Assembly: GCA_963769885.1 (NCBI GenBank)
Contig: CAVYNH010000004.1
Coordinates: 75,904-139,903 of the forward strand
Direction: 5' to 3'
Source of the DNA: Methanobacteriota archaeon
Lineage (GTDB): Archaea; Thermoplasmatota; E2; DHVEG-1
DNA: 64,000 nt
The stretch's first letter is position 1; each line of letters starts with the position of its first letter. Shown here in pieces: positions 41,621 to 63,884 of the stretch. The position numbers were made by a program, and so were the translations under genes. The notes under the pieces are model-generated. The model made no database searches and had not been told where the DNA came from. It saw nothing but the letters and a program-made list of their open reading frames with translations.

Positions 41621-41727
41621 TGAAATAGGGGCTACGCCCCTATGACCCCGTTCCGCCTTCGTTCCTTTCATCTGCGGGCCTTTACTGCGGTTCAGACCGC
41701 GCAGTTTTTCCGGGCCTCTATTGATAA
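41621..41727 (+). repeat. Intact copy of the intergenic repeat family
   Basis: tgaaataggggctacgcccctatgaccccgttccgccttcgttcctttcatctgcgggcctttactgcggttcagaccgcgcagtttttccgggcctctattgataatag. Confidence 0.65.
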
Positions 41728-41825
41728 TAGAAAAAATCATTTGGTTTTTTCATATTTTAAAAGAATTTATATATGCATTTATTGTTCTCTTTGTAATTTA
41801 AATTAATAAATTGAGGAGATAGTGA

Positions 41826-42299: not shown

Positions 42300-42399
42300 A
42301 TAATGTGAATTCAGCGTAGGATCAAGAATTCAATCATGGTCAAAGTTGCGAGAGTTAGATGCTGGGCGGGGCTGATTTTTCCATACAGCTCACTATTCG

Positions 42400-42810
42400 C
42401 TACGGTCCCCAGTGTGATGGTTCGAATCGCCACTCGACGACGTCGTTGTCTCTAAGAAAGTATTGGCTGCATCCGATTGCGGAGAACTGCCCGTTCACAT
42501 AGTACTGCCAATAGCAGCCCTCATCCCCGTTCTTCACCCCGTTGATCCCGCGGATGAAATAGGAATGGTAGCCCTTCCAGTATTCTTTTTGCATAGTGAT
42601 GTTCAAGGCGGCTGCGCATTCATCCGAGAAATCGGCGACCGTCACGTTGGTGGTATTCCTCCCAAGATACTCAAGGGACCAGGACGGCGTGATGATCCTC
42701 ATGCTGATGTTGCGCGCCAGGCCGTCAGGGTTACGCTGTAATGAGAGCGAGAGGAGATCGCAGTGGGAGACGAGGGCCATCAGGGACAGCAGGACGGCGA
42801 CGACCACCAC
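42400..42810 (-). CDS. Secreted DUF4430-like protein
   Basis: Signal-like N-terminus; CYWQYYVNGQFSAIGCSQYFLRDNDVVEWRF resembles the DUF4430 signature; non-ATG (GTG) start in track frame; 54 nt downstream of the toroid gene. Confidence 0.45.
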   Translation of the reverse strand: MVVVAVLLSLMALVSHCDLLSLSLQRNPDGLARNISMRIITPSWSLEYLGRNTTNVTVADFSDECAAALNITMQKEYWKGYHSYFIRGINGVKNGDEGCYWQYYVNGQFSAIGCSQYFLRDNDVVEWRFEPSHWGP

Positions 42811-42864
42811 GTAGACGATGATAGCCCGTTTCTTGGTATGCGGCAGGCGGATGCGCTCACCTCA

Positions 42865-44757: not shown

Positions 44758-44812
44758 AAGTTTCTTGCCTCTTGGGGTGTGTAGGGAGTCGGTAGGTTTA
44801 AATGTAGCAAAA

Positions 44813-45358
44813 ATGATGATGATTGTTAGTACTATGGGTAACGATGTGTTTAAGGCCTTGAGTAGTCCGACGCGGGTGAGGATTCTCAAGGAGCTTGCGG
44901 GCCGGGAGCTGCATGTGTCCGAGGTTGCGCGAAGGCTTAAGTTGTCGGTGCCTGTGGTCGCTCGGCACGTGCGGGTGCTGGAGGGTGCTGGGTTGGTTCG
45001 GAAGCGGGTTGTGGGGAATCTATATTTGTTGTCGTCGGTGGGGGTGAACGTGGAGGAGGCGTTGGATCCGCTGGGGGAGGAGGCGCGGGTGTCGATTGGG
45101 GAGCGTGAGAGCCTGTTTGATGCGCTGCGGCAGGTGCCTGGGGTGGAGATTACGCGGGTGGGGGATGTGCAGTATATCACGTCGATTAACGGGGAGCGGG
45201 GGTACTTCATCTATGAGGTGGATGGGAAGGCGCCGGGGGTGCCGATCGATCAGTACCGGCCGGGGCGGACGGTGCGGCTGCAGGTGAAGCGGCTGGTGCC
45301 GGTTCGGAAGAAGACGGTCGAGGTACAGGTGCAGCGGGGGGAGAACCAGGAAAAATAA
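44813..45358 (+). CDS. ArsR/SmtB-family HTH transcriptional regulator, divergent from the toroid/DUF4430 operon
   Basis: VFKALSSPTRVRILKELAGRELHVSEVARRLKLSVPVVARHVRVLEGAGLV; start chosen at internal ATG so as not to overlap the divergent gene. Confidence 0.6.
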   Translation: MMMIVSTMGNDVFKALSSPTRVRILKELAGRELHVSEVARRLKLSVPVVARHVRVLEGAGLVRKRVVGNLYLLSSVGVNVEEALDPLGEEARVSIGERESLFDALRQVPGVEITRVGDVQYITSINGERGYFIYEVDGKAPGVPIDQYRPGRTVRLQVKRLVPVRKKTVEVQVQRGENQEK

Positions 45359-45370
45359 GAAGATGTGGAA

Positions 45371-46729
45371 TTAATTCGAATTATTCCCCCAAAATGCGTA
45401 TCCAGCAGGATTGCCTGGAACCCACTCGGGTGGAACCATGTATGCCCGGTAGAGAACGTTCTTTCTCTGTGGGGTTGTGTAGCTCCACACGACTGTATTT
45501 GCCGGAGTTATTTGAAAAACACGGCCAGACAGGCCCTCAGTCACCAATGTATTTCCGTTTGGAAGCCTTTGGACGGAACTCATGGAAGCACTGAATAATT
45601 TATGAAGACAACCATTTCGAAATAAAACGTTGAACCCCTCATTATGACGATATTCTTGGACTATGTCCAAGGTAATCGGATTAAATTCAAGTACCCTTGA
45701 GAACCATCTGAATTCATTTGGGAAACCTAACAGACCGTACCCGGCTGCTCCGCCGTTGTCGAATACGAGGATGTCGCCTGCTCCTGGTAGACCGTCAGGA
45801 ATCATGTGTGCATGGTGAAAGCCGATCATTTTTCCAAGCTTTCGTCCTTCTTCGGTTTTTTCTGAGAAATCTGGCCCAATTCTCCAGACGATTTTTCCTG
45901 TCTGTCTGCTGATGATCGCCATGAAATTCGTGTTTCGTGTGCTAATGATGATGTTTTCAGGATTGAACCGTTCATCGCCTTTCTCGAACCACTTATTTTT
46001 ACCTAGGAGGGACACTGAATTGATATGGATCCAATCGCCAGGTAGGCAACCTAGGATCAATCCAGCTCCGCCAGGGTTCAACCAGATTGCTCTCCTTTCT
46101 TGTGCACTAAGCCCCATTTCATCGATATGGTCGGAGGCGTGCCATTCGAAGCCTGTCAGCGTTCCATTCCAGTCAACTTCGTAAATCACGTCATCTATTA
46201 TTTGCTTAAAGCTGACATTAGCGTTCGTTGTTGTATGATGCCCTAGAATCAAGGTTTTGCCGTGTGGCACAAAATCCTGACCTGGCGCATAGTACCCCAC
46301 TGGATTTCCTTCTCTTTCAAAATCGTGATGTTCGCGTGCAATTGGTGTTCCGTTTTCATCCGTTTCCCAGCCGTTAAAATTCCATTCGACAGATCCGTTC
46401 CAATCCAATTGCGTCAGGTTTGAACTGTCCCATTCGCTCATATATCGTCCAGTCGCAGAAATGATTGAACCGCCGGGCAGCATCTTTGCCGGGTCTGGGG
46501 TCGTATTCCACCTGTGTATCTCTGTTCCATTCATTTCGATGAGAGACGTCCAATAACCTTCACCTTCATCATTCTTTATGACCGGCATGACGCTGCAGAG
46601 AATGTATCCTTCACAGATGCCTGCATTGTTATTGTCTGTATTCTCATGGGCCTGTACAGTCGCATGGAAGGTTGAGGCATTGAGAGATAACAACAGAAAA
46701 AGTACACAGGAAACAAGGGCTTTTTTCAT
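45371..46729 (-). CDS. Secreted beta-propeller protein, arylsulfotransferase (ASST)-like candidate
   Basis: Signal peptide MKKALVSCVLFLLLSLNASTFHA; His-rich motifs REHHDFE, ILGHHTT, IGFHHAHMIPDG; assignment from memory. Confidence 0.4.
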   Translation of the reverse strand: MKKALVSCVLFLLLSLNASTFHATVQAHENTDNNNAGICEGYILCSVMPVIKNDEGEGYWTSLIEMNGTEIHRWNTTPDPAKMLPGGSIISATGRYMSEWDSSNLTQLDWNGSVEWNFNGWETDENGTPIAREHHDFEREGNPVGYYAPGQDFVPHGKTLILGHHTTTNANVSFKQIIDDVIYEVDWNGTLTGFEWHASDHIDEMGLSAQERRAIWLNPGGAGLILGCLPGDWIHINSVSLLGKNKWFEKGDERFNPENIIISTRNTNFMAIISRQTGKIVWRIGPDFSEKTEEGRKLGKMIGFHHAHMIPDGLPGAGDILVFDNGGAAGYGLLGFPNEFRWFSRVLEFNPITLDIVQEYRHNEGFNVLFRNGCLHKLFSASMSSVQRLPNGNTLVTEGLSGRVFQITPANTVVWSYTTPQRKNVLYRAYMVPPEWVPGNPAGYAFWGNNSN

Positions 46730-46916
46730 TTCTCGTATTTTGATATATAAAGGACTATTAATAATTTTTTTTCAAATAAGTGTGCAGAAACAAGCCAAGG
46801 ACAGTGATTGGGTGAACCTCATACAAAAGCTGGATGAAGTACCCGGGATGGTCAAAGCTATAGGAATATATAAACAAATTAAAAGTTAAATATATGTTAT
46901 TTATTATCTTGTAAAA

Positions 46917-47888
46917 ATGCAAAAAAAAGAACAGGGAAATAATTCTATTGCTTATTACTATGATGTTGCATTATCGTTTGCTGGGGAGGATAGAAATTTT
47001 GTTGAAAAAGTGGCTCAGGAATTAATAAAAATGGATATTAAAGTTTTTTATGATAAATATGAAGAAGTAATTTTATGGGGAAAAAATCTGTATACACATC
47101 TAAGAGACATCTATCAAACAAAAGCAAGATATACAGTAATGTTTATTTCGAAGAATTATGCCCAGAAAGTCTGGACAAATCATGAACGAGAAAGCGCACA
47201 AGCTCGGGCTTTTATTGAAAATAAGGAGTATATCTTACCTGTTCGTTTTGATAATACAAAAATTCCAGGGGAGTTACCTACCATTGGTTATATCAGTTTA
47301 AAGGGTAAAACACCTAGAATGTTAGCTGAATTAATTAAAGAAAAAATAGGGCCGATACCTCGGATTAACTATTTTCCAGATAATCCCGATCGATTATTCG
47401 AAGAATTAAAAGTAAGAGAACCAAAAAAACAGGAATTAATATATAATTTAGCATATACATTTCATGAGAGCTTTAAGTTAATGACTCCTACTGAGAGAGA
47501 TATTTTGTTTAAAGCATACTTAGAGACTTGCCCGGAAGGGCCCCCAGAGAATATTCATTTAAACCTTCAATATTTTTTAAGAATATTGTCCATGGAAAAA
47601 CAAGAACTTATTGCGATTTTCTCTAGGCTGGACTGTTTGGGTTTCCGAACAAAAATTAATAAGGTAAATGAAAAGAAAGACCGTCACAAAATATGTGGGG
47701 ATAGTGAGATAATAACAATTACATATGAAATAAATAAACCTGCCTTTTCAGGGAATGCATCCTTTATAATGATTTCAATTTTCGATATTATGACAGACTT
47801 GATATGTAAGGATTGTTTACGGATAACTTTGGAGAATGCGGATTTTTCAATTTTAAGCACGGCAGTTGGATATAAAGAAAAGAAATAG
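46917..47888 (+). CDS. TIR-domain protein with C-terminal domain of unknown function
   Basis: N-terminal YDVALSFAGEDRNFVEKVAQELIKMDIKVFYD...ARYTVMFISKNYAQKVWTNHERESAQ matches the bacterial TIR pattern (DV(F/A)(I/L)SxxxED...S.W...E); ~170-aa C-terminal region without recognisable motif. Confidence 0.65.
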   Translation: MQKKEQGNNSIAYYYDVALSFAGEDRNFVEKVAQELIKMDIKVFYDKYEEVILWGKNLYTHLRDIYQTKARYTVMFISKNYAQKVWTNHERESAQARAFIENKEYILPVRFDNTKIPGELPTIGYISLKGKTPRMLAELIKEKIGPIPRINYFPDNPDRLFEELKVREPKKQELIYNLAYTFHESFKLMTPTERDILFKAYLETCPEGPPENIHLNLQYFLRILSMEKQELIAIFSRLDCLGFRTKINKVNEKKDRHKICGDSEIITITYEINKPAFSGNASFIMISIFDIMTDLICKDCLRITLENADFSILSTAVGYKEKK

Positions 47889-48018
47889 TTTCTCTGACCC
47901 CCTCCAGGAATTTATAAGGAGTAGAACGATTATCTTTCTCCGAGAAAAATAAGGTCAAAATTGACCCCCAGATGCTGCGAGCATCCAGGGGTCTGAGACC
48001 ATAATAGGATGTGCTATT

Positions 48019-49014
48019 ATGATCCCAAGCGGGAACAATACCCATAGTGGTAATAAGATTTTGGTGCAGGCCAGTTTAAATCAGATAGCGACTCAAAAAC
48101 AGTTGAACACATCACCTAAGGCAATTACGACTTCGGTCATACAGACTTCTTCTTCGAAACAAGAAAATGACAATGACAATCTCTTGGACAAGTTCAACCG
48201 TTACATGCGTGAGAACAACTACAGCAAGAGCACCATCTACATGTATACAAAGGTTGTCAGCCAGATGCTTGCCATGAAAGATCCGCTCTCCATGACGGAG
48301 GATGATCTCAGCGACGTTCGGCTCTACCTTGTTGAACGCTATGCTCAGAATGGGAACCGGGCGAGGTTCGCTGCCATCAACGCCTTCTGCAAGCATATCC
48401 TTAAACGAAAAGACCTGCACCTAAGGATTCCCGGACCCGTCATCAAGAACAAGGACGTGTTCACCAATGAACAGATCGATGCTATCCTTGCTGTTGCGAA
48501 GACAAAAAACAAGCTTGCCTATGCCATACTTCAGACCTTGTACCACTGCGGACTACGCAAGATGGAGCTGGTTAACCTGAACCTCTCTGATCTCAACTTC
48601 GAAACTATGGAACTTCGATTGGACAACACCAAGACCGGAAACGCCATCGTGTCAATGACCACGGCTGTTGCTTTGGCGCTGCAGGATTACATCGAGAATG
48701 AAAGATCTAAGAAAGAGGGTGAACAAGCCGTTTTCCTCAACAAGAAAGGAGTTCGCATTGGAGAATGGGATGTTAGAGGGTACCTCAAGAAATGTGGAAA
48801 AGAAGCCGGGATAACATCCCGGATGTATCCACATATGTTACGCGCATCATGTATCACACATTTATTAAATAAAGGCGTGAATCCTCTCACGGTGCAGCTT
48901 CATGCCAGACACAGAAATTTCATGACAACCATGAGATATAACAGGCCAACTCAACAACAGATGAAGGCTGATATAGAAAGAATATTCTCTATAACTAATC
49001 AAGAAAAGATTTAA
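48019..49014 (+). CDS. Tyrosine recombinase (XerC/XerD-like integrase), intact
   Basis: C-terminal catalytic region HMLRASCITHLLNKGVNPLTVQLHARHRNFMTTMRYNRP (R..H..R..Y pattern); N-terminal SAM-like region NRYMRENNYSKSTIYMYTKVV. Confidence 0.75.
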   Translation: MIPSGNNTHSGNKILVQASLNQIATQKQLNTSPKAITTSVIQTSSSKQENDNDNLLDKFNRYMRENNYSKSTIYMYTKVVSQMLAMKDPLSMTEDDLSDVRLYLVERYAQNGNRARFAAINAFCKHILKRKDLHLRIPGPVIKNKDVFTNEQIDAILAVAKTKNKLAYAILQTLYHCGLRKMELVNLNLSDLNFETMELRLDNTKTGNAIVSMTTAVALALQDYIENERSKKEGEQAVFLNKKGVRIGEWDVRGYLKKCGKEAGITSRMYPHMLRASCITHLLNKGVNPLTVQLHARHRNFMTTMRYNRPTQQQMKADIERIFSITNQEKI

Positions 49015-49025
49015 AATATTATTTC

Positions 49026-50522
49026 ATGTTCCTAAATATTATGCTGAATAAAATAAGGAAAATACAGGAATCTTATTTTACCTTAGTCGAAGATTACTTA
49101 GGAGATTTTTACAAACTTGCTAATAAAAAAGATGGATTATATGGAAAAGTAATTAAAGAATTATATGAAAATAAAATATCTGGATTATCCCATACAGAGT
49201 GTGAACTTACACTAGATTCTTTTGAAGAAGATATTTCAAAAATATGGAAAAAGAATTTTTGGACTATTACAAAAGAAATCGAGGAATTGAACGGAGTAAA
49301 AACATATAATTTTTTCGTCCCGATGCCAAAATCTTTTTCTCTTACAGATACACATGCAACAGAGATTTTTCGAAGATTTGGTCTTTATTCTGATACTATA
49401 ATTTTGGATGATCCAATGTGGCGGGCTGTAGCTAATAAACAAGAGTATGAGGTTCTTTTTCGGTATATGAAATTTTTAATTTATGGTTTAAACATTCTTA
49501 AGATGAAGAATATAGTTCTTGCAGACGTCGACCAACCTATCGCATTAATAGTATCTCTCGACTCCATCGATTCAGCTAGAAAAAAACAATTTCAGTCTAT
49601 TGTTGAAGAACAAATTTGCATGTTTTCATCAACTTTATTCCAAAAAAAACTAGCCAGTTTAGATCAGATTAAATCATTTATGGATTCCAAAATAAAATCT
49701 TTAAAAGAGTTTCAAATGTTCACAAAAAATCAATATACGAATAACAAATTTTTTATCGATGCCGTCAAAGAATTATTTAAATTAAAGACAACTGGCGATA
49801 GTGGAATTCGCTATTTTTATGGAGATGGATTACCATATGTTCTCCCTAAAAAGGAAATCTTCAGTGACATTTTTATTCATGCAGCATATGGTTATGTATC
49901 CTATTCAAATCAAATTTATTTAAAATCATCTCTTATAGATTCTTTCCCATTATTTACAGAAAAAAAAGTGTGGGAAGAATCAAATCAATTTCTTATGAAT
50001 GATTATTCAATGACTGCGAGTTATTTAAAAGGGAAAACGCCAACTCATTTAATTGGAGTCAATGTTTTAGCAGATGATACATTCAAATGGTTAGGTAATG
50101 TTCCAGAACAGACTTTAATTGAACTTAGAAAAAAAGAAGAATTAAGTAATTTTAGACATTTTTTCTCTGATAAATTAAATGAATATCATGATGCAAATTT
50201 AGAAAATATTAATAAAATTATTAAGGACTTAAATTACTCACTGTCTAATGCTTTCAAAAAGCACGAACAAGAGGTAAATGAATTATTGAAAAAATATTCT
50301 ATTAAAAAAGATATCGGCAAACTAATTGTCTCTGGATCTATAGCTATAAGTGGGTCTGTTTATTTTCCATTAGGAGTATTAGGCACAATACTTGGGGGGA
50401 AAACGATAACCGATATTTTCAATAATATTAAACAAAAGAAAAGTGAAATAGAAATATTGAACAAGAGACCTGTGGCAATTTGTTATGAGGCATATAAAGA
50501 TGAAGCAACTGAAAATATTTAA
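49026..50522 (+). CDS. Hypothetical protein (498 aa) immediately downstream of the integrase
   Basis: Track ORF 12 nt after integrase stop; AT-rich; no P-loop or other motif recognised. Confidence 0.45.
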   Translation: MFLNIMLNKIRKIQESYFTLVEDYLGDFYKLANKKDGLYGKVIKELYENKISGLSHTECELTLDSFEEDISKIWKKNFWTITKEIEELNGVKTYNFFVPMPKSFSLTDTHATEIFRRFGLYSDTIILDDPMWRAVANKQEYEVLFRYMKFLIYGLNILKMKNIVLADVDQPIALIVSLDSIDSARKKQFQSIVEEQICMFSSTLFQKKLASLDQIKSFMDSKIKSLKEFQMFTKNQYTNNKFFIDAVKELFKLKTTGDSGIRYFYGDGLPYVLPKKEIFSDIFIHAAYGYVSYSNQIYLKSSLIDSFPLFTEKKVWEESNQFLMNDYSMTASYLKGKTPTHLIGVNVLADDTFKWLGNVPEQTLIELRKKEELSNFRHFFSDKLNEYHDANLENINKIIKDLNYSLSNAFKKHEQEVNELLKKYSIKKDIGKLIVSGSIAISGSVYFPLGVLGTILGGKTITDIFNNIKQKKSEIEILNKRPVAICYEAYKDEATENI

Positions 50523-50610
50523 AAGGATTAAATCCCCTTAGCAATACTACTAAGAAATTTTACTTATTAAGGCTTAATCTTCTAATAAATAAATTTGAAA
50601 TTCCCCGCCC

Positions 50611-50904
50611 TTATTTCTCAGGCTTCAATTCGCCGCATTTGGGGCATATATAAGTAGCCTTTGAAGTCAATTGACCATGGCAGTAAGGGCAAATATAAGT
50701 AGATGGTTTAAGGGAATATCTTCTATAGACAATGGCTGCAATCGCTAAGGCATTGAACAATAAGTATACCCATAAAACATCCAACCAAACAATAGGAATA
50801 CTAAAGAGACTCCAAAAATTGGCGGCTAATAGAAAAACATCGAAAACGAAAAACCATTTACCACTTCGTAGAGCATAATCAACCAAAATAGGAGGAATCC
50901 TCAC
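50611..50904 (-). CDS. Small membrane protein with C-terminal zinc-ribbon (hypothetical)
   Basis: Hydrophobic segments plus CPYCHG...CPKCG. Confidence 0.4.
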   Translation of the reverse strand: MRIPPILVDYALRSGKWFFVFDVFLLAANFWSLFSIPIVWLDVLWVYLLFNALAIAAIVYRRYSLKPSTYICPYCHGQLTSKATYICPKCGELKPEK

Positions 50905-51159
50905 TTAGACCCTCCTTTCCACAAAACAACCACAATTAGGACATTGAATCATTTCTTTTGTCAAAACTCGATTACATCTCGGGCATTTCCGGCCAGAAGA
51001 TACTCTAGAAGGGCTCCTAAAGCTATACCCCCAATAATACCGAGAGCGACCCCAGCTATTGCTTCACCCAGATCAGCATCGTCTCTCTTACTCATCTCGT
51101 GCAAATGAAGTCAAACACTACATAAAAACATTGCTCCAAGCTTAGTTTTTTATTTTTCT

Positions 51160-52449
51160 TTACAATTCACTAAGGGTATCATTATCAATTTGTTCAATAG
51201 TCTCGATGCCAAAATGTTTCCTTAGTATTATGATCAATTCAGATATCAGATAAATAGCTAAAATTGCTGTTAATCTTATGTTTGCTCTTTTTTCAAAAGT
51301 GTCAAGATCATTAGGTTCTGGAAATAACTCATGAGCTGACTTAGAAGCCGAGATGTGAAAAGAAAGAAAATAGGAGCCTACCCTGCTATCAATAATATTT
51401 TTTGTTTCAAGGATTTTTTCCAAGTCTCTAAGAGATTCCTTCTTATTAAACTCTATCTTTTTCAAGGAACAAATCTTTTCTCCTATCGATTGTAATAAGG
51501 CTCTAGCATCTCTGAATAATGAACTATATTCTCTATTTCTGTAAGATTGATATATTTTTTCTATCGAAGGATAATAATATTCTAAAATTTCGCCTAATTC
51601 CTTATTAGAAGTCCCCCTTAAGTTCTTCAAATGTTGATAAAGAGCCTCAGCAATTTTCATTGTTTTTAAAGGATCTCGGTCAAAGAAGTCAAATCTTTCA
51701 TCTTGATAAGATCCTGAATCAAAAGAGTCTTCCAATTTCTTCTGAATTTCTTCATATGGAATATCAAATTCTAATATCTTTTTCTTGATTTTTGGTGAAA
51801 TATTATTTATCAAACTAACTATAGAATTATAATCAGTAAGAGCACCACCACTATCCAAACCACAACAATTGGGGAAAATGACCCAAAAAGAGAAATCGCC
51901 AAGACCCGCTCTTAAATCTAAGAAAATTGCCCAGGTGAAATTTCTATTTTGCAAATGACCTATATGTCTTATCTTATAAATTAAAATCTTTTTGGGTTTA
52001 AATGAAAGATAACCATTGAGAATAATCTCAAAAAAAACAGAAGCTGAAAGACCAATATTACTGAAAATTTTAATGGGACGATCTCCAAAAATAAAATTAA
52101 CTTTTTCCTTCTCCTTTTTATTATTAAATTCATGAGCTGAAGAAGAGATCCATCTTGAGAAAAATTTTAATCCCGGAAAATAAGAGAAAAAGGATGTTGT
52201 ATTGAGCTGAGTCAAACCAAACTCATTCTGATAGATCAAAGAGCACTTTATTACTGGTAAATTCTCCTTATCTTGACCTTCTAAACTAGCAAATAAAAAA
52301 ATCGATTCTTCTTTCGATTCAATATTCGCTAAAAAATAATCTGTAAGTTCTGCATCTTCTATCCCTCTCTTTTCCACTTTCGGTTTTTTTATATTGAACT
52401 CTCGAATAATTTGATTTACGCCTTCCTCAAATTCTTCCCTTGTCAACAT
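51160..52449 (-). CDS. Hypothetical protein (429 aa)
   Basis: Track ORF; AT-rich; no motif recognised with confidence. Confidence 0.45.
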   Translation of the reverse strand: MLTREEFEEGVNQIIREFNIKKPKVEKRGIEDAELTDYFLANIESKEESIFLFASLEGQDKENLPVIKCSLIYQNEFGLTQLNTTSFFSYFPGLKFFSRWISSSAHEFNNKKEKEKVNFIFGDRPIKIFSNIGLSASVFFEIILNGYLSFKPKKILIYKIRHIGHLQNRNFTWAIFLDLRAGLGDFSFWVIFPNCCGLDSGGALTDYNSIVSLINNISPKIKKKILEFDIPYEEIQKKLEDSFDSGSYQDERFDFFDRDPLKTMKIAEALYQHLKNLRGTSNKELGEILEYYYPSIEKIYQSYRNREYSSLFRDARALLQSIGEKICSLKKIEFNKKESLRDLEKILETKNIIDSRVGSYFLSFHISASKSAHELFPEPNDLDTFEKRANIRLTAILAIYLISELIIILRKHFGIETIEQIDNDTLSEL

Positions 52450-52648
52450 TCGGGTTAAGAAGGAATTAATTAAAGATAAATCTTGGTATCTAAAGGTAAA
52501 GGTAGGTATAGTTGAGGCTACACCTTATCCTATGAGAAAATCATGCAATAATCCTAACCCTCTCTTTTGGCATAGCTCGAACCCCCAGCCAGTTTAAAGC
52601 GGTTCATGAATAATAAAAGAAATAAACGACTTACCTAAAAGCTGTGTT

Positions 52649-53050
52649 TTATTCTGATTCAGTATTGGTATCTTCCTTAGATATTACGATAAGCCATCCA
52701 GGAGAATTTGACTTAACATACATTTTATTCCCGCTTGGAAAATATGTAATTTCAGAGGGCGGATATTTCGGAACGATTTTTGGACCTTTGCGAGGTTCGA
52801 TCTCATACAAGTTTTGCCCAGATTGAACATATAAAAGATCAGGCTCCCCATATCCAATAAGCCTTAACTTTGATTCCTGAGAACTGTTTTTTTTATCTTC
52901 CAAATCATAGTGATGCTGACTCTTATCAGGTAAAATAATATGAAGCCCTGAAGGAGAAGCCTGGGGTTTTAATTTCCACCACACTCCAGGTTTTTCTATT
53001 AAGTAGTATTTCTTTTGATTGATTATTACTGGTTTACCTGATTTAGTCAT
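52649..53050 (-). CDS. Hypothetical protein (133 aa)
   Basis: Track ORF; no motif recognised. Confidence 0.35.
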   Translation of the reverse strand: MTKSGKPVIINQKKYYLIEKPGVWWKLKPQASPSGLHIILPDKSQHHYDLEDKKNSSQESKLRLIGYGEPDLLYVQSGQNLYEIEPRKGPKIVPKYPPSEITYFPSGNKMYVKSNSPGWLIVISKEDTNTESE

Positions 53051-53206
53051 AGACTTGAATATATCTCCGTTGTTTTCTTTTTTCCTTTTAGTGTTAATGA
53101 CCGGCTTTAAAACCTTCCCGGAATTATCCCTTATTGATCAAACTATTATTAAAAAATAGCACACTTTCAAAAGCATGTTTATATAGTTTTTAATCATTAA
53201 CATGGA

Positions 53207-53452
53207 CTTAGTGTTTTCGGGCCTGTTTTTTATAAGGGGATGTGAACAAGTTTTCAGAGTTCCTTCAGCGGCTTTGAATATCCATCTAGCAATTCCACTA
53301 GATAACAGTTAGATTTCCTATTCGAATAGTCAATATTTTTCAATCAGATAAGTAATCATATTTGACAAACTACGTTTTTCCTTTTCTGCTATCTTTTTTA
53401 ATTTTTCTACGCTTTCTTTAGGGATGGTAATGTTGAGTCTCACGTATGCCAT
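53207..53452 (-). CDS. Ribbon-helix-helix (CopG/Arc-like) small DNA-binding protein candidate
   Basis: Own translation (not in ORF track): MAYVRLNITIPKESVEKLKKIAEKEKRSLSNMITYLIE... beta-strand then two helices typical of RHH; 81 codons to a TAA stop by my reading. Absence from the track means a reading error cannot be excluded. Confidence 0.35.
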
Positions 53453-53549
53453 GCTTATTTAATATGTGGTAAATGTGTTTTATGCTATATACAGATTTTA
53501 TACATACTTGATATGTTTATATACTGTATTCAGTATGCATGAATAAAGA

Positions 53550-54452
53550 ATGAAAAAAATCGTTCAAGAGAGAAACGCAGTTGCAGGAGTTATTGAAGCA
53601 TTGCTTCTCGTCGCTCTCATCGCCATCATCATCTCAATGATCCAACTCCAATACATCCCGCAAATCATGGAACAACGAGAAGCAGACCACATGGACCAAG
53701 TCGCAAACCAATTCGCGTACCTTAAATCTCTCATTGACATCCAGGCTGTCGCAGGATCCATGGGAACAGGAACGCCCCTCGCCTCCGCGCCCATGAACGC
53801 CCAGTTGACACTAGGAAGCGGGCAGCTGCCATATTTCATTACTGCGCCAGCAGTCGGCCAGATACAAGTAGAGAACGACAGTCAATCCTTCATCACTATA
53901 GGACCCTACCCGTTATATGAAGAGAAGACACAACATCCAAAAGACAAGTTTTGGTTGGCTTGTATCGAGTATGATGCTGATAACTCCTATTTCGTTGATC
54001 AGACATATATCCTTGAAGGCGGAGGTATCATCCTAAGTCAGCCGCATGGGAAACCCGTCATGAGAGCGGACCCCTGCATTTCCTTCACAAACAACAGCAA
54101 TAATAGTATCACGGTACGATTCTACCTCCCCATCATCATCGGATACGCTGGGAAGAATATGACCTCTGGCACAGGCAGCTGCTTTGTACGGACAACCTAC
54201 GCTAATTCCACCACCTATGCCACAAGGCCAGGGGATTGGAGCAACATCACCATCCAATCACGGTACGCAGACGCCTGGAACGAGTCATTGCATCGAGCCT
54301 TCAGCCCAGTTAAAAACTACGTACAAGTTGCTCACATCCCAGGGACGAATACCGTACAAATAACGTCGTCAGCGCCACGAATACAACCAATAAATCTTGT
54401 GTTAACCATAGTGGTGATTCAGTGCGAGATCGGCCCCGGATGGGTCATCTAA
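53550..54452 (+). CDS. Putative archaeal type IV pilin-like protein (class III signal peptide)
   Basis: N-terminus MKKIVQERNAVAGVIEALLLVALIAIIISM: charged region then hydrophobic helix as in prepilin signal peptides; Thr/Ser/Asn-rich remainder. Confidence 0.4.
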   Translation: MKKIVQERNAVAGVIEALLLVALIAIIISMIQLQYIPQIMEQREADHMDQVANQFAYLKSLIDIQAVAGSMGTGTPLASAPMNAQLTLGSGQLPYFITAPAVGQIQVENDSQSFITIGPYPLYEEKTQHPKDKFWLACIEYDADNSYFVDQTYILEGGGIILSQPHGKPVMRADPCISFTNNSNNSITVRFYLPIIIGYAGKNMTSGTGSCFVRTTYANSTTYATRPGDWSNITIQSRYADAWNESLHRAFSPVKNYVQVAHIPGTNTVQITSSAPRIQPINLVLTIVVIQCEIGPGWVI

Positions 54453-54655
54453 CAAGAAAGATGATAAGGCGTAAGAACAACAGCCACAAGACACACCAAA
54501 CAAGTAAGAGAATGGCTCTTGTTATATCCTATGACTCGCGTCCCCTTCTTGTTTTTTGTGCCTTGTTTTAGTGGTCTTGTGAGTTTCGCTCGGTTCTCCT
54601 CGAGATCACAAGAGTCCAGCCAAGAACCCTCGAACCCCTCGCAAGAGATTGCATC

Positions 54656-55222
54656 TTAGAGAAGTCTCTTCTCCTTCTTGATGCTTGGATTCAGGAACCC
54701 ACTGCGTTTCAACGGCACAACCACATCTAACAATGTCATGTCAACGACGTTACCCGTATAGGAAGTTCGGAATAGCTCCTGGAACTGCACGGCCTGAGCC
54801 ATGCCTGGAGCAGTGAAGACAACGATCTCATCCACGATGCTACCGTCGACCCAGAGATCATCCTCCACCACAACCCCAAGCTTCTCCCCAGTCTTATCAG
54901 CCACCCTTTTCACTAGGGCGGCTTCAAACTCATTCTCCACCGGCTGATGCGACCATTGCACAAGCAAGACGTACGCCTTCCTGTTGATTTTCTCCAAATC
55001 GGGGACGGCGTGATATCCCCAAGTGAACTGTTCGGAGTCCAAAGTTTTAATGATCCGCCAGACCTTCTGCCGGGAAAACCCGACGTTCTTGGAGATTTCA
55101 TCGATACTTGCATTACAGTTCTTCTGTAATTCCGCCAGCACCTTGATCCGGTCATCCGCCATCTTCTTTTTACTCGTCTTTGCCATAGCCTTCTCTTCAG
55201 ATGTGTTCAACCCTCGGTACAC
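54656..55222 (-). CDS. Lrp/AsnC-like HTH regulator-like protein (paralog of 22438..22968)
   Basis: DRIKVLAELQKNCNASIDEISKNVGFSRQKVWRIIKTL; same domain order and ~60% identity with the 22438..22968 protein. Confidence 0.45.
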   Translation of the reverse strand: MYRGLNTSEEKAMAKTSKKKMADDRIKVLAELQKNCNASIDEISKNVGFSRQKVWRIIKTLDSEQFTWGYHAVPDLEKINRKAYVLLVQWSHQPVENEFEAALVKRVADKTGEKLGVVVEDDLWVDGSIVDEIVVFTAPGMAQAVQFQELFRTSYTGNVVDMTLLDVVVPLKRSGFLNPSIKKEKRLL

Positions 55223-55672
55223 AAGAACGGTATTTATACGTAACCCCTAACCAACAAAAAGGAGGAGAGACATCCTCTGAAGAGCATCATCTTTTTTTCT
55301 CTGGTTCTCTCCTAGTACTCCTTCAAGGACGAATAGGGCTTTGCATACAAACTCCTTAAATTCGACAATTGGACATAAAGTCCAACGGACCTCCTCGCCT
55401 CAATATCGACCTTGAGGCCAAGCTCGACCAAGGTAGTGGCTGCCGATGCACCGCGCTGCGGTTCACATGATTCGCAATAGTTGGGTTCATCTGTTGGCTG
55501 GCTTGTTGGTTGGGGTCCACCTTCGGAATCAGATATATGTAGTCGTTTTCAACCAACAAACCAATCAACGAACCTTTAGACCCATCGAATTTCGGTTATT
55601 ATTATTAACCGAAAAACAGCACAAAAAATGAAGCCAGTTTCAAAGAAAAATACACATATATGAGAAATTACA

Positions 55673-56050
55673 ATGGCAGGTTCTATGGATTTCAGGACGA
55701 CGCTGAGACATCTCAATGGTGCAGGAGAGGTTACGCCTCGTGAATTTGTTCAGTATCTGATACGAAAAGGAGTCATGAAGGGGATGCCAGCGAAGAATGC
55801 CTCGCAATATCTTTCACGGTTGTTCAAAATGGGGCTCGCGTACAGGAGGTTAGATAAACGAAGCTACTATGGTGAGAGACCCCGGAAAAAACCGTACCGC
55901 TACCGGATCAGTCAGCAAGGAATCCGCTACCTCAAATGGCTGAAGGAACAAGAAACTAAAATTGACCTGCCGATGACAATTGCAGAGCGACTCGCGGAAT
56001 TAGATAAAGAACAAGACGCCCTCGAAAAACAGTTGTTCTCCCGACATTAG
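55673..56050 (+). CDS. Small winged-helix DNA-binding protein upstream of the integrase (possible element regulator)
   Basis: 125 aa; basic, helix-rich (REFVQYLIRKGVMKGMPAKNASQYLSRLFKMGLAYRR); position immediately upstream of the integrase. Confidence 0.4.
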   Translation: MAGSMDFRTTLRHLNGAGEVTPREFVQYLIRKGVMKGMPAKNASQYLSRLFKMGLAYRRLDKRSYYGERPRKKPYRYRISQQGIRYLKWLKEQETKIDLPMTIAERLAELDKEQDALEKQLFSRH

Positions 56051-56341
56051 ACATTGATCTCCTTAGGAAAAAATAGCGGGTCTTTTTCCGTTGAAAATCG
56101 GAAATGCTATTAACCACCTCGGTTTCGTCACCTATGAGCATTGATGACAGGCAGCCAATCCATACCTGAGGGAGTCCGAACACCGGGGACGCTCACAGGT
56201 AATTTTTTATCCCAGGGATCGTATATAATCCCTACCAGATCGCCGTATGACCTGGTAGGAGGCGTATCAAAAAAATGGACCCACACTACACCACAGTTAG
56301 GCGAACATTTTGCAAACAATCAACCCCTACACGGGGAGGAA

Positions 56342-57493
56342 ATGGTGAATCGACCTTATGTAATTCAACCGTACCTTAATGTAGACGAAAGACCACGAAT
56401 CGATGATAGAAAGCTGATCATCTCGTTGCATGTCGACCGATCTAAATATACCACCCATGAAGAAATATACCATGAGATCACAAAATGGTGGGTCAACATC
56501 AAGAATCGATCCGCAACTACCGTAAAAGACCGCATATGCCATGCACGATCTATGCAACACCACCCGATCTACCCGGTAGACTGGCTGCAATTTGACCCAG
56601 TGCAAATCCTAAACCAATTACTCTACCGGCAGATCCACGAGTATCCAGAACTCGCTAAAAAGACCGGCAGACCAACCTACGGAGTGACACAGTTAAACAA
56701 TCTCTGGAAAGTCGTACGAATGTTCTCAGAGGCGTACGGCGTCGATATTTCGCATTGGGGCTGGACTCCGCCAACTCCGCCAGAGCCACAAGTCAAAATC
56801 GTTCCCAGGCCAGAAACCGTCAACAAACTCATGCACCATTGGTACACGAACGATCGATTCGAGAACGCCCTCATTCGAACGCTGTTAACCGTTGGTTTTC
56901 ACACTGGAGTACGACCAGAGGAACTTGTCATCCTGAAGGTTAAAGATGTGCGCTTTGATGAAGGATATCTCCTCATCCACGAACAAAAAAAGAAATACCG
57001 AGAGCGACAAGTATGGATCGATGAATCGGTTCTCTCAAGCCGCCAACAAAACAGCCTACGAAACTGGGTAATCCTTTGGAGACCGCGAAAAGCCAACGAG
57101 AAATCTGGAGATTTTCTGTTCATCCAGAAGAATGGCACCCCGTTTCCATCTGCAGAAGCCCTTCGCATGTACCTCATGCCTTTCTGCAAGCCAGTATGGC
57201 CTGATTTCAAGCCTAGAATCATGAGGGACTGGAGCGCCATCGCACGGTTGATACGAACAAAAATCGAGACAAAGAAATGGGATACCAGGATCGTGAAAAA
57301 CGATCTCGGGCATAAACATGAGAAAACGACGGAAAGCTATATTCGATTCGCGGAAAACTACTATCGCAGGGACCCATACGATTGGCTACGGGCCGTCCTG
57401 AAATTTCACCCAGACAGCAAACGAATGCTGTCTCTGAGACAGGAATACGGGCCGAGCCAAGAAGTTACCGTAATAGTTCCGCACGCAATGTAG
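56342..57493 (+). CDS. Tyrosine recombinase/integrase adjacent to the 3' end of tRNA-Arg
   Basis: Start set at ATG 56342 preceded by GGGGAGGAA; catalytic region VGFHTGVRPEEL...LGHKHEKTTESYIRF (H...Y); ends 70 nt from the tRNA 3' end. Confidence 0.7.
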   Translation: MVNRPYVIQPYLNVDERPRIDDRKLIISLHVDRSKYTTHEEIYHEITKWWVNIKNRSATTVKDRICHARSMQHHPIYPVDWLQFDPVQILNQLLYRQIHEYPELAKKTGRPTYGVTQLNNLWKVVRMFSEAYGVDISHWGWTPPTPPEPQVKIVPRPETVNKLMHHWYTNDRFENALIRTLLTVGFHTGVRPEELVILKVKDVRFDEGYLLIHEQKKKYRERQVWIDESVLSSRQQNSLRNWVILWRPRKANEKSGDFLFIQKNGTPFPSAEALRMYLMPFCKPVWPDFKPRIMRDWSAIARLIRTKIETKKWDTRIVKNDLGHKHEKTTESYIRFAENYYRRDPYDWLRAVLKFHPDSKRMLSLRQEYGPSQEVTVIVPHAM

Positions 57494-57563
57494 GTACATG
57501 TGGAATCTCAACAACGGGTAAAAACAGGGCTCCTGAGGTACGAGTCCCTCCTGTTGAATTTTA

Positions 57564-57637
57564 CGGACCTGTCGGGATTTGAACCCGAGTCAGAGGCTCC
57601 GGAGGCCTCTGTGATATCCAAGCTACACTACAGGTCC
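57564..57637 (-). tRNA. tRNA-Arg (anticodon CCG)
   Basis: Own fold: acceptor GGACCTG/CAGGTCC, anticodon stem GAGGC/GCCTC with loop CTCCGGA, T-arm TCGGG-TTCAAAT-CCCGA, discriminator G; 74 nt. Confidence 0.75.
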
Positions 57638-57740
57638 ACGAGTGTTTCTTTGCTATCAATCCAACCTTAATTAGATTTTCCACAAGCAACATAAACCACC
57701 ACGAGCCTCGACCACATATAATAAAACCGGAGAACCACGT

Positions 57741-62521: not shown

Positions 62522-62642
62522 GTCGGGGTGGCTCAGCCTGGCCAGAGCGCCTGACTCATAAGCGTAGCTTGAAAGGTTCGTACAATCGTTTCGGGCGAGC
62601 GAAGACATCTGGAGGTCGCGGGTTCAACTCCCGCCCCCGACA
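62522..62642 (+). tRNA. Intron-containing tRNA with CAT anticodon (Met or Ile2), ~45-nt intron
   Basis: Acceptor GTCGGGG/CCCCGAC, D-arm GCTC-AGCCTGGCCA-GAGC, anticodon loop CTCATAA, T-arm GCGGG-TTCAACT-CCCGC, discriminator A; ~45 extra nt after the anticodon loop. The 3' anticodon stem has a U-U mismatch in my fold, so the intron boundaries are uncertain. Confidence 0.5.
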
Positions 62643-62737: not shown

Positions 62738-63787
62738 TTAGGGGGATCTGTAGCCGGGGATTTGGATTGAATCCACCCCAAATTCTTGTTCAAAAGATGG
62801 AAATTCATGCTTATTTTCGCGTTTCCAATTAGAGATTAGATTTAGAGTTTTAATACGCTCAAATTCTTTGAGAGTTATACCATCATTAAATGCAATTTCC
62901 TCACTAAAATCATGTTCAAGGACATAAGCAATCTTATCAATTTTTTCATACGAATATCCAATGATATACTCATCTCTTATACCTTTAAACATATCTGGAG
63001 AAGGAACTTCTTCTATTATCTCTGAGGGCACACCAAGAAAACGAGCAAGCTGGCGCACTTGGTTTTTGTAAAGCCCCAAAAGAGGTTCGATAGGAAGATC
63101 ATTTATCCCGTCTTTTACAAACCAGCCTACAAAAGACTCGGACCTATTAGCTGCCCCAATCAAAACCAGGTTTTGCTCTACGGCAAAATTCTCTAAGATT
63201 TTTCTTCTCCAAATGTGTCGAGTATTGAAACTTTTTTCAATAGTTCCAGCTAATGCGCTATAGAGTATTTTCGTAAGCTTATTCTTCGTTGGCTCCCCCT
63301 TCTTTGAAGTCAAAACAAAGGGACTTTCTCTAAAAACCAAGGAATAAATTATTTTAGATGAGAAAACACCCAATCTATTCAGCGCTGGAAAAAACAAGAT
63401 TGTTCTCATTACTGAGGGTTTGTAAGTACCCTGTTCTTTTACTACTGCACTGATATCTCTTATCTCGAAGTGTATACCCAGTTCGTCAGCAACTCTCTGA
63501 GCGTATTGCCTAAATTTCTTCTGACTATCTCGATTATATAAATGGAGCCCGTACACTTTCGAAGGATCCCTCATTGCTTTCACAGCTAATATTGAGACCA
63601 CTGCAGAATCCAACCCTCCACTTATTCCTATGCATATACCATCTTTTCCCGCTTCTGTGACCTTTTGTCGAATAAAATTAACAATGCTATTCGATACCTG
63701 TTCGCAGTCGATAGTCATTGAATCCATAAGACTCATCGGATCAGTCATTTCCTTTCTTTTATCATATTTTTCAACTATTGTGGACAT
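62738..63787 (-). CDS. nadE: NAD+ synthetase-like PP-loop ATPase
   Basis: GISGGLDSAV PP-loop motif; 349-aa track ORF (true start may be internal); AT-rich unlike the adjacent core block. Confidence 0.6.
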   Translation of the reverse strand: MSTIVEKYDKRKEMTDPMSLMDSMTIDCEQVSNSIVNFIRQKVTEAGKDGICIGISGGLDSAVVSILAVKAMRDPSKVYGLHLYNRDSQKKFRQYAQRVADELGIHFEIRDISAVVKEQGTYKPSVMRTILFFPALNRLGVFSSKIIYSLVFRESPFVLTSKKGEPTKNKLTKILYSALAGTIEKSFNTRHIWRRKILENFAVEQNLVLIGAANRSESFVGWFVKDGINDLPIEPLLGLYKNQVRQLARFLGVPSEIIEEVPSPDMFKGIRDEYIIGYSYEKIDKIAYVLEHDFSEEIAFNDGITLKEFERIKTLNLISNWKRENKHEFPSFEQEFGVDSIQIPGYRSP

Positions 63788-63866: not shown

Positions 63867-63884
63867 CAAATCCCGACAGGTCCG
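63867..63884 (+). repeat. 18-nt exact copy of the tRNA-Arg(CCG) 3' end, inverted relative to the gene at 57564..57637; candidate att-site remnant
   Basis: caaatcccgacaggtccg equals the reverse complement of 57564-57581 (T-loop 3' part, T-stem 3' strand, acceptor 3' strand, discriminator). Confidence 0.5.

Follow-up and report, generated by a model that had tools for sequence, protein, structure and literature searches.

We consider it likely that the integrase and the adjacent tRNA-Arg(CCG) gene mark one end of an integrated element of ~18.7 kb, which spans positions 38913-57576 of the window (the whole stretch of 64,000 nucleotides analysed here) and which is probably no longer mobile. The first-pass annotation had proposed that an integrase at this tRNA forms the boundary of an integrated element, and a direct repeat of the tRNA 3' end, a conserved att arm and an integrase-free locus in relatives all favour this proposal. 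The other boundary, which had been left unlocated, is now found ~18.7 kb leftward, and the TIR protein, second integrase, RHH gene and pilin-like gene through which the element was suggested to extend are all within 38913-57576. The features of the element and its surroundings are listed in Table 1.

Table 1 Positions of the element's junctions, genes and associated features in the window.
Feature	Position	Strand	Basis
attL core, interrupted	38913-38947		aligned with intact attL of L084, L087 and L091
Integrase-distal att arm (P' arm)	38948-39071	plus	19-mer, blastn, nhmmer
Left cargo	39294-46729		Pfam, GC per ORF, repeats
TIR-domain protein	46917-47888	plus	Pfam TIR_2 3.3e-19; PADLOC PDC-S66, ThsB-like
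XerA/XerC-like tyrosine recombinase, 331 aa	48019-49014	plus	PF00589 116 bits and SAM_4
Small RHH gene	~53330-53452	minus	gene calls of near-identical contig L146
DUF7289 pilin-like gene	53550-54452	plus	Pfam; L146 gene calls
HTH_24/Lrp-like winged-helix regulator	54656-55222	minus	Pfam/NCBIfam profiles
Small MarR/PadR-like winged-helix protein, C-terminal helical tail	55673-56050	plus	homologue Pfam, AlphaFold, Foldseek
Tyrosine integrase, 449 aa	56144-57493	plus	Pfam PF00589, homologue and XerA alignments
~32-nt insertion	57470-57501	plus	compared with all 14 homologous loci aligned
Integrase-proximal att arm (P arm)	57502-57563	plus	locus alignment
attR core CGGACCTGTCGGG	57564-57576		discriminator base and 3' strands of acceptor stem and T-stem of tRNA-Arg
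tRNA-Arg(CCG), intact	57564-57637	minus	ARAGORN 57563-57638; Rfam 57564-57637, 60.2 bits
Exact 18-nt copy of tRNA-Arg 3' end, inverted; no explanation under the integration model	63867-63884	plus	exact-repeat search

Junctions of the element and the same locus in relatives

At the right junction, both the coordinates and the PF00589 match agree with the earlier description of a tyrosine recombinase ending 70 nt (57494-57563) from the 3' end of a minus-strand tRNA-Arg. This adjacency is not due to chance, since the same layout, with a minus-strand tRNA 43-100 nt past the conserved integrase region, is present in 31 of the 51 homologous integrase loci that have enough flanking sequence. The tRNA gene itself is nearly identical to that of three relatives (L001-L003), of which L001 and L003 differ at one acceptor-stem position, and a relaxed Rfam scan of the window detected no tRNA fragments besides its two tRNA genes. 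Within the P arm, GAATCTCAACAACG at 57503-57516 is a degenerate version of the arm motif AAATCTTAACAAAC, and a TCCTGTTGA box adjoins the core. The ~32-nt insertion just before this arm supplies a TAG stop and a frameshift, and the ancestral integrase tail (ISTTGKNRAPEVRVPPVEFYGPVGI, followed by a stop) is still readable in another frame, running into the tRNA. Judged by this alignment, the window integrase has lost its ancestral C-terminal tail through the insertion.

A direct repeat of the tRNA 3' end, for which a search leftward had been suggested, is present at the left junction, though split. Exact and near-exact searches (k≥11; 18-mer with ≤3 mismatches) found no such repeat to the left of the tRNA, and it was also missed by eye, because an insertion splits the core; we detected it solely via the conserved arm that follows. 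The core consists of GGACCTGTCG (38913-38922), a 16-nt filler AAAAGAAAAAATGCTT (38923-38938) and CTGTCGGGG (38939-38947), in direct orientation relative to tRNA-Arg and with a 6-nt duplication flanking the filler. After removal of the filler and the duplicated CTGTCG the sequence reads GGACCTGTCGGG(G), which equals the tRNA-Arg 3' end at 57565-57576. It counts against the proposal that the attL core is not an intact repeat and is recognised from two pieces of core, of 10 nt and 9 nt, together with the arm homology. The arm carries the family motifs GTTGAAAATCTTAACAAAC (38967-38985) and ACATTACTCTCTAAAA (39016-39031), the former being a 19-mer that recurs exactly in four other loci. Compared by blastn with the arms of nine loci, the window arm gives E values from 1e-17 to 1e-4, and an nhmmer arm profile, which also recovers loci left out of its building, finds a single copy in the window (38933-39051), directly after the split core. 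Arm and split core at 38.9 kb thus set the extent of the element at ~38913-57576. No direct repeats of the tRNA-Met 3' end were found.

The suggested comparison with an unoccupied tRNA-Arg locus is provided by five Thermoplasmatota relatives (L001-L004 and L008), in which the right flank of the orthologous tRNA-Arg(CCG) gene is the same but neither an integrase nor a direct repeat is present. The flank in common comprises DUF359, Rpb7, S6e and aIF2-gamma, followed by PIN and tRNA-Met where the locus extends that far, and only L001 and L008 have a nitroreductase. The five relatives are distant (aIF2-gamma is 77-83% identical), and for this reason no strain-level empty site was seen. The combination of no att repeat with conserved synteny of the flanking genes, which the first-pass annotation had named as pointing to a fixed chromosomal gene, was checked and is not what the locus presents.

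The integrase, its family and a proposed mechanism

The integrase had been given a length of 383 aa, and 449 aa with the ATG at 56144 is more likely, because an identical database protein (P0001) has 449 aa, homologues have 425-540 aa, and the homologue N-termini align upstream of the start chosen earlier. The protein matches PF00589 at 49.7 bits, above the cut-off of 27.1, and the PHROG integrase phrog_1 at 2.4e-14. The catalytic residues R257, K282, R361, H390 and Y399 are present, are invariant across 18 family members and align with those of XerA (PDB 4a8e), and in this family the HxxR box has K or R in place of its first His. No match was obtained by tblastn of the integrase against 50,697 phage and virus records at E≤1e-3, an IMG/VR scan with the integrase returned no relatives, and the plasmid collection searched contained no relative of the family. 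That the integrase is a fixed chromosomal gene, such as a Xer-like resolvase that just happens to lie beside the tRNA with no element present, is extremely improbable: XerA is both its nearest solved structure and its nearest named model, but it scores 47.9 bits against the NCBIfam XerA model with its cut-off of 220, is missing at the orthologous locus of the five relatives, has homologues at varied tRNA genes, in tandem arrays and on a circular contig, and is accompanied by an att arm and a core repeat.

At E≤1e-30 the integrase family comprises ~148 clusters (50% identity clusters), belongs to Thermoplasmatota and is known only from metagenomes and metagenome-assembled genomes; it is so far without name or description. 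Among the 31 tRNA-abutting loci the tRNA is tRNA-Arg in 22, with anticodon TCG, CCT or CCG, and other homologues sit at tRNA genes for Glu, Ala and Ile. The predicted integrase C-termini run into the tRNA as GPxGIRTRDL. Clean direct repeats of the tRNA 3' end, with the conserved arm next to them, delimit a 10.0-kb element in L087 (14 nt) and an 8.9-kb element in L091 (13 nt), and a tandem array (L089/L097) delimits a core of 13 nt. The excised circular form with attP is seen for one family member, L101, a circular contig of 8.6 kb that carries integrase, core and arm. Together with L084, L087, L094 and L091 (8.6-10.4 kb), this element has a backbone of a 607-aa protein, a 114-aa protein, a serine-resolvase-like protein and a P-loop ATPase module, with the resolvase-like protein upstream of the integrase and the ATPase module after the arm. 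An IMG/VR scan with the backbone ATPase found no relatives, and the backbone proteins had no match in sequence searches of the PDB. The arm motif is found in the distal arm as well as in the integrase tail, and where it lies within the integrase coding sequence it encodes the conserved peptide ILTN. Each side of the core carries AAATCTTAACAAAC and a TCTCCYGTTGA box in direct orientation, and from this arrangement we read them as putative arm-type binding sites.

The small winged-helix gene noted earlier lies 93 nt upstream of the integrase and runs in the same direction, and its assignment is backed by structure prediction and by Pfam matches of a homologue. The gene has no Pfam match of its own; a 49%-identical homologue matches Sulfolobus_pRN, TrmB and MarR. 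The AlphaFold model has a winged-helix topology (pLDDT 77), and the best 50 Foldseek matches in the PDB are all winged-helix regulators, mostly of MarR or PadR type. The label is therefore supported by prediction. A second accessory gene, or a counterpart of the coiled-coil Orf2 discussed below, was not identified next to the window integrase.

The observed junction sequences, the pattern across the family and the empty sites in relatives, compared with related elements, suggest the following mechanism. The circular form would carry an attP composed of the integrase 3' tail, the P' arm and, between them, a 13-nt core with the same sequence as the tRNA 3' end. Site-specific recombination by the tyrosine recombinase into the last ~13 nt of tRNA-Arg would insert the element, and the element's own core copy would rebuild the tRNA after integration. 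The integrase/tRNA side would then be attR and 38913-39071 attL, and the upstream winged-helix protein may serve as a recombination accessory factor or as a regulator.

Interior of the element and alternative histories

The left cargo encodes unknown proteins of 101 and 620 aa, a 157-aa ORF, a DUF4430 protein, an arylsulfotransferase-like protein and a 781-aa secreted prenyltransferase-like/Ig protein with 60% GC, and it holds a repeat copy (41617-41713) whose family lies otherwise outside the element. The TIR-domain protein is, by its domain matches, a candidate defence cargo gene. It belongs to an AT-rich block (46.9-53.1 kb) of mostly 28-37% GC per gene, within which the XerA-like recombinase has 45%; this recombinase scores 134 bits against the NCBIfam XerA model, under the cut-off of 220, and may be a nested insertion. 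A search for nested-element boundaries around the block yielded only low-complexity repeats. Further right, the module of RHH and pilin-like genes recurs in other mobile-element-like contigs, and the HTH_24/Lrp-like regulator has a 66%-identical paralogue at 22438-22968. No virus hallmark genes were found with PHROGs. GC in the interior is very uneven (28-60%), and the GC-rich surface-protein genes resemble the host in composition. The uneven, partly host-like GC and the repeat copy count against the integrated-element reading that we favour.

In L001-L003, which have no integrase here, a DUF7289 pilin-like gene (44-50% identity) is found ~4 kb from the tRNA with matching side and orientation, so part of the tRNA-proximal DNA could be ancestral. 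An island of ~3.1 kb ending at the pilin-like gene, which these homologues had brought into consideration, was set aside because the nearest homologues of the window's gene (57-60% identity, on readable contigs) are in mobile-element-like contexts with Prim-Pol or HNH, and because the family arm lies at 38.9 kb.

With the related elements of 8.6-10.4 kb the window element shares the integrase and att arms only. The backbone genes of the family (607-aa protein, resolvase-like protein and P-loop ATPase) are absent from the window by tblastn and tblastx, and no interior gene is common to the window element and any of 60 related loci, which also counts against the favoured reading. TIR and surface-protein cargo is carried by other elements of the integrase family too. 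Given the split attL, the cut integrase tail, the degenerate P-arm motif and the replaced backbone, the window element is in our reading a degenerate mosaic derivative, and we infer that it can no longer excise precisely.

An unlikely alternative history is that the island is a composite which grew by accretion. The arm and split core would then represent the left end of an older family member that had lost its integrase and backbone, the integrase module (~53.3-57.5 kb, ~48-50% GC) would have arrived separately, either later or in truncated form, and other elements and host genes would lie in between. The family offers precedents in its tandem arrays (L089/L097), in the truncated integrase remnants that are common by tRNAs (L122, L126-L133, L136, L140) and in a locus with arm and integrase fragment ~1 kb apart (L133), and within the window the sharp GC blocks, the second recombinase, the lack of backbone genes and the similar position of the pilin-like gene in relatives fit such a history. 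However, only one arm and one direct core copy are present in the 57 kb left of the tRNA, and a tandem history therefore needs the loss of an internal junction. The outer boundaries are identical whether the island is a composite or the single element that we favour.

The first-pass annotation overlooked the exact inverted match of 18 nt to the tRNA-Arg 3' end that lies right of the element. A match of this length is improbable by chance (0.02 expected), and its identity stops exactly at the tRNA 3' terminus, as it does in att cores. An integrase-mediated inversion, past or possible, between the tRNA core (57564-57581) and this copy is nonetheless quite improbable in our view. It would concern a 6.3-kb block with the 5' part of tRNA-Arg, translation genes, tRNA-Met and NadE, and would leave tRNA-Arg intact either way. 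Synteny with relatives stops just inside the copy (~62740), beside the low-GC NadE gene, and there is an archaeal precedent in Int-pTN3 of Thermococcus nautili, which inverts DNA between inverted att/tRNA copies (PMC5495485); unlike the window integrase, Int-pTN3 is of the suicidal type and has its sites in the 5' part of the tRNA. However, the copy exceeds the 13-nt core of the family and has no family arm beside it, none of 31 related loci contains an inverted counterpart, and the copy might just as well be a relic att site left by another, older element. The 37-residue end of an ORF right of the copy gave no significant match to CorA, PEMT or radical-SAM, which flank the tRNA in relatives; their flank downstream of the tRNA also includes two KaiC genes and the DUF7289 gene. 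If true, such an inversion would give Thermoplasmatota an equivalent of the chromosome flipping by integrases that is known from Thermococcales.

Comparison with known systems and significance

The closest parallels include the archaeal chromosome-dimer resolvase XerA (PDB 4a8e, 5hxy), which is nearest in catalytic-domain sequence with aligned R, K, R, H and Y; in contrast to XerA, the window integrase scores far under the model's cut-off, has an extra N-terminal region of ~180 aa and belongs to a mobile, tRNA-linked and variably present gene. The SNJ2-type module of haloarchaeal pleolipoviruses and other elements uses a 14-bp core at the tRNA 3' end, and two small proteins from its operon, the coiled-coil Orf2 and the MarR-like wHTH protein Orf3, promote integration (Wang et al. 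2018, PMC5861418). The system described here is similar in its short core (13 nt) at the extreme tRNA 3' end, its integrase at a fixed short distance, its small co-directional gene for a predicted MarR/PadR-like winged-helix protein, the tendency of integrase subgroups to follow particular tRNA targets, and the joining of one integration module to unrelated element backbones. It differs in its host phylum, which is Thermoplasmatota instead of Halobacteria, in being known from sequence alone, and in an integrase ORF that itself crosses the core into the tRNA. As in classical non-suicidal integrases of the pNOB8 type, the gene is whole after integration, the target is a tRNA 3' end and the core is a direct repeat, and the repeated motifs on both attP arms resemble the arm-type sites of heterobivalent integrases of the lambda type (PMC8371274). 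Unlike in either of these types, arm binding is a prediction here, and the integrase coding sequence itself contains one of the arm motifs. In suicidal integrases of the SSV type the core is well inside the gene, and integration splits the gene to opposite ends of the element (PMC7253208). The attP of the present family also overlaps the integrase ORF, but its overlap with the core is limited to the terminal codons, and the integrase is whole next to the tRNA in the window and in relatives.

Integrated elements at tRNA genes are textbook biology, and the finding itself is therefore an ordinary genomic island. The mobile elements of Thermoplasmatota are poorly known, and the value of the island is that it anchors an undescribed integrase family in this phylum. 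Comparison across the family gives a defined attP, in which conserved arm motifs accompany a 13-nt core at the tRNA 3' end, and also provides a circular reference element of 8.6 kb along with clean integrated copies. With this attP and these references, islands carrying defence and surface genes could be annotated in Thermoplasmatota genomes, and the recombination system would become testable in vitro.

Integrase gene and family

In the first-pass annotation, a 383-aa tyrosine recombinase ending 70 nt from the 3' end of a minus-strand tRNA-Arg, preceded by a small winged-helix gene, was taken to mark the boundary of an integrated element. The arrangement holds: ARAGORN finds this tRNA-Arg(CCG) as the only tRNA in the window, Rfam matches it (57564-57637, 60.2 bits), and the ORF ending 70 nt away contains a phage-integrase catalytic domain (49.7 bits vs. 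a cut-off of 27.1). The length has to be revised, since the ATG of the 383-aa version (56342) is internal, the identical database protein comprises 449 residues from an ATG at 56144, and the homologues (425-540 aa) have N-terminal parts that align upstream of ATG 56342. Aligned with Pyrococcus XerA, the invariant R257, K282, R361, H390 and Y399 fall on its catalytic residues. Identity with XerA itself was rejected (47.9 bits vs. a cut-off of 220), as was an SSV-type 'suicidal' integrase, because the integrase gene stays whole. The small gene ahead of the integrase has no Pfam match of its own, and its sole distant homologue (49% identity) matches Sulfolobus_pRN, TrmB and MarR. The winged-helix designation agrees with the AlphaFold prediction (pLDDT 77; order helix-helix-helix-strand-wing-strand) and with the PDB matches listed by Foldseek, all 50 of which are winged-helix regulators, mostly of MarR or PadR type.

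A large protein collection yielded 60 integrase homologues, and among 1.84 billion cluster representatives a profile search retrieved 148 clusters with E<=1e-30 (284 with E<=1e-10), all named 'integrase' at most. Relatives were absent from the phage collection and from IMG/VR, and the plasmid collection gave just two remote catalytic-domain matches. Among the 51 loci with at least 160 nt present after the conserved integrase region, a minus-strand tRNA begins 43-100 nt after that region in 31 (22 Arg, with anticodons TCG 8, CCT 13 and CCG 1; 6 Glu; 2 Ala; 1 Ile). Many predicted C-termini end in GPxGIRTRDL, the reverse-complement translation of the tRNA 3' end, and as a rule the family's integrase ORF crosses the attachment core and runs on into the tRNA. 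Many loci (L122, L126-L133, L136, L140) keep only an integrase 3' fragment beside the tRNA, in L133 with an att arm ~1 kb away; family elements appear to decay frequently, leaving tRNA-proximal integrase stubs.

Attachment core and arms in related elements

On a 171-kb contig (Ga0315282_10000093; loci L089 and L097), two family integrases lie 25.8 kb apart in a tandem array at tRNA-Arg(TCG). The distal integrase is followed by CGGACCTATGGGG and then by non-tRNA sequence, the proximal one by the identical 13 nt running on into the tRNA; the core is therefore 13 nt long, and corresponds to the discriminator base plus the 3' strands of the acceptor stem and T-stem. The ORF is >50 codons longer at the integrase-core-arm junction of this array, the integrated form stopping inside the tRNA, and the tail of the array integrase is also seen beside a full tRNA in another sample (L090). 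After the lone core comes a conserved arm (GGTTAAGG...GTTGAAAATCTTAACAAAC...ACATTACTCTCTAAAA...T-rich), which L084, L087 and L091 carry at the integrase-distal end of their elements and which follows integrase and core directly in L101, L102, L105, L106, L128 and others. Clean direct repeats of the tRNA 3' end are present in L087 (14 nt, 10.0-kb element) and L091 (13 nt, 8.9-kb element). L101 (1-8726), with a 127-nt terminal overlap and with integrase, core and arm all carried, is a circular 8.6-kb molecule in the attP form and a candidate reference episome for the family. Its backbone genes are common to L084, L087, L091, L094, L102, L105, L106 and L128; the small-element backbone comprises genes for proteins of 607 and 114 aa, a serine-resolvase-like gene immediately ahead of the integrase and, past the arm, a P-loop ATPase module. 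The motif AAATCTTAACAAAC also occurs in the integrase tail, ~60 nt ahead of the core, coding there for ILTN, a conserved peptide, and a TCTCCYGTTGA box lies on both sides of the core; these direct repeats on both arms are putative arm-type binding sites.

Boundaries, state and content of the island

The window holds one arm copy, with an exact 19-mer and a second motif; in blastn searches, 38939-39071 matches the arms of nine loci with E values of 1e-17 to 1e-4, and an nhmmer arm profile finds no second copy in the window at E<=10. Directly left of the arm, in direct orientation to the tRNA, lie GGACCTGTCG, AAAAGAAAAAATGCTT and then CTGTCGGGG. Minus a 16-nt filler and one copy of a duplicated CTGTCG, this left core reads GGACCTGTCGGGG-TTAAGG, matching the intact L084 attL (CGGACCTGTCGGGG-TTAAGC) and the tRNA 3' end at 57565-57576. 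Exact-repeat searches of the window returned no left copy of the tRNA 3' end because the core is split by the insertion. The proposed leftward extension from the integrase is thus borne out by arm and core (38913-39071), and the direct repeat sought there exists (38913-38947) in split rather than intact form. From these sequence matches, the island is bounded at ~38913 and ~57576, roughly 18.7 kb. A fragment resembling a diverged tRNA T-arm and acceptor (CTCGAGTTCAAATCTCACAAGAGCCC) is situated 47 nt to the left of the attL core, in the opposite orientation to tRNA-Arg; it could be a further remnant of a decayed att site.

Features of the window
Feature	Position	Strand	Remark
OLD-family nuclease	7028-8977		
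SbcCD-like pair	9233-13053		
IS110 transposase	13302-14279		
SIR2-like match	15106-16239		weak
Y1 transposase	20479-21366		
HTH_24/Lrp-like regulator	22438-22968		outside element
660-aa protein	24598-26580		weak Hint-like matches
XerA-like fragment	32912-33259		C-terminal 116 residues
tRNA-like fragment	38839-38866	plus	
Left core, first part	38913-38922		GGACCTGTCG
Left core, last part	38939-38947		CTGTCGGGG
Arm 19-mer	38967-38985		
Second arm motif	39016-39031		
620-aa protein	39699-41561		
XerA-like recombinase	48019-49014		331 aa
HTH_24/Lrp-like regulator	54656-55222		inside element
Small winged-helix gene	55673-56050		
Integrase	56144-57493	plus	449 aa
Integrase-tail insertion	57470-57501		~32 nt
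tRNA-Arg(CCG)	57563-57638	minus	ARAGORN limits
tRNA-Met(CAT)	62522-62642	plus	~48-nt intron; Rfam 50.8 bits; missed by default ARAGORN
NAD synthase (NadE)	62738-63787		38% GC
18-nt tRNA-end copy	63867-63884	plus	CAAATCCCGACAGGTCCG

The genes right of the tRNA in the window (nitroreductase, DUF359, Spt4, Rpb7, ribosomal protein S6e, aIF2-gamma, PIN protein and intron-containing tRNA-Met) show that the organism is an archaeon. By aIF2-gamma, the nearest relatives in a scan of species-representative genomes are uncultured Thermoplasmatota (77-83% identity). A comparison with unoccupied loci, as the first-pass annotation had suggested, is provided by five of these (L001-L004 and L008): each has an almost identical tRNA-Arg(CCG), coded on the same strand, and the genes to its right follow the order seen in the window (nitroreductase in L001 and L008 only; PIN protein and tRNA-Met where the locus extends that far). 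None of the five has an integrase beside this tRNA or a repeat of its 3' end; the presence of the integrase thus varies, and it is no fixed neighbour of the tRNA. The left flank, annotated in L001-L003, consists of host-type genes (DUF7289 pilin-like, two KaiC-like ATPases, PEMT-like methyltransferase, CorA or radical-SAM enzyme), with a PKD surface protein in L002 and an ORF of similar size in L003.

The window element is a degenerate, cargo-laden derivative of the family. Relative to 14 aligned homologous loci, its integrase tail has an insertion that supplies a TAG stop and causes a frameshift; in a different frame the ancestral tail can still be read (ISTTGKNRAPEVRVPPVEFYGPVGI), with its stop inside the tRNA. 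The same insertion is present in the read-level assembly L146, which is 99.9% identical and represents the same strain. The motif of the P arm is degenerate, and the element probably cannot excise precisely. No family backbone genes are found in the window, no interior genes are held in common with 60 related loci, and no virus hallmark genes were detected. The interior has a mosaic make-up. Unknown ORFs are accompanied by GC-rich (56-60%) genes for secreted proteins, one a DUF4430 protein and the other, of 781 aa, prenyltransferase-like/Ig, and by a gene for an arylsulfotransferase-like protein. In an AT-rich block, where most genes have 28-37% GC, lie the genes for a TIR protein, for the XerA-like recombinase (45% GC) and for large proteins of unknown kind. 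Further genes are an RHH gene paired with a DUF7289 pilin-like gene, one for an Lrp-like regulator, and the integrase with its winged-helix neighbour. Other elements of the family, too, carry surface proteins and a TIR effector.

A pilin-like homologue (44-50% identity) lies on the same side of the tRNA in L001-L003, and some tRNA-proximal DNA could accordingly be ancestral. A composite history is conceivable, in which the left end stems from an older element and the integrase module is later or truncated; the outer boundaries would be the same. Within the pilin-like family (at least 497 members), the closest homologues on readable contigs (57-60% identity) have Prim-Pol, HNH, RHH and SHOCT genes as neighbours, a setting that resembles mobile elements, and we therefore treat the pilin-like gene as cargo.

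Elsewhere in the window, the two Lrp-like regulators are 66% identical, and the 620- and 660-aa proteins are paralogues (36% identity) with a 28%-identical homologue right after tRNA-Met in L002 (11990-13318). The XerA-like fragment (59% identity to the 331-aa recombinase) has the appearance of a pseudogene left behind by another mobile element. Intergenic repeats of 47-94 nt with a hairpin (ATGAAATAGGGGCTTTGCCCCTAT...) occur at 13165, 14546, 21360, 23070, 36817, 38303 and 41617; two copies flank the IS110 transposase and one (41617-41713) is within the element. In its left part (7028-21366), the window looks like a defence or variable region.

Inverted tRNA-end copy and comparison with known systems

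An exact 18-nt copy of the tRNA-Arg(CCG) 3' end lies inverted 6.2 kb to the right of the tRNA (chance expectation 0.02 matches), past the low-GC NadE gene and just past the end of synteny with relatives (~62740, just beyond tRNA-Met). It is longer than the 13-nt family core, the arm search of the window found no family arm beside it, and a counterpart is present in 0 of 31 related loci. The copy may be left over from the att site of another, older element, together with an inversion; alternatively, by analogy with Int-pTN3, for which integrase-mediated inversion was shown (PMC5495485), it may be a partner site for such an inversion. The NAD synthase gene between tRNA-Met and the copy (neighbouring host block, 50-61% GC) is not at this position in relatives.

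Functionally, the SNJ2-type module of haloarchaea comes closest: it has a 14-bp core at the tRNA 3' end, with the integrase a short, constant distance away, and a MarR-like accessory protein, its integrase subgroups track tRNA targets, and unrelated element backbones have the module in common (PMC5861418). The window family resembles it in the tRNA-end core, the short fixed integrase distance, the tRNA-tracking subgroups and a module on unrelated backbones, and the predicted MarR/PadR-like small protein of the window element is a candidate counterpart of the accessory protein. Sequence relatedness to SNJ2-type integrases was not detected in the phage collection, and we therefore claim resemblance, not membership. 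The integrase family is an undescribed one in Thermoplasmatota and the window element a member of the ordinary tRNA-integrated kind; the inverted att-like copy is the only feature that could lead somewhere less ordinary.
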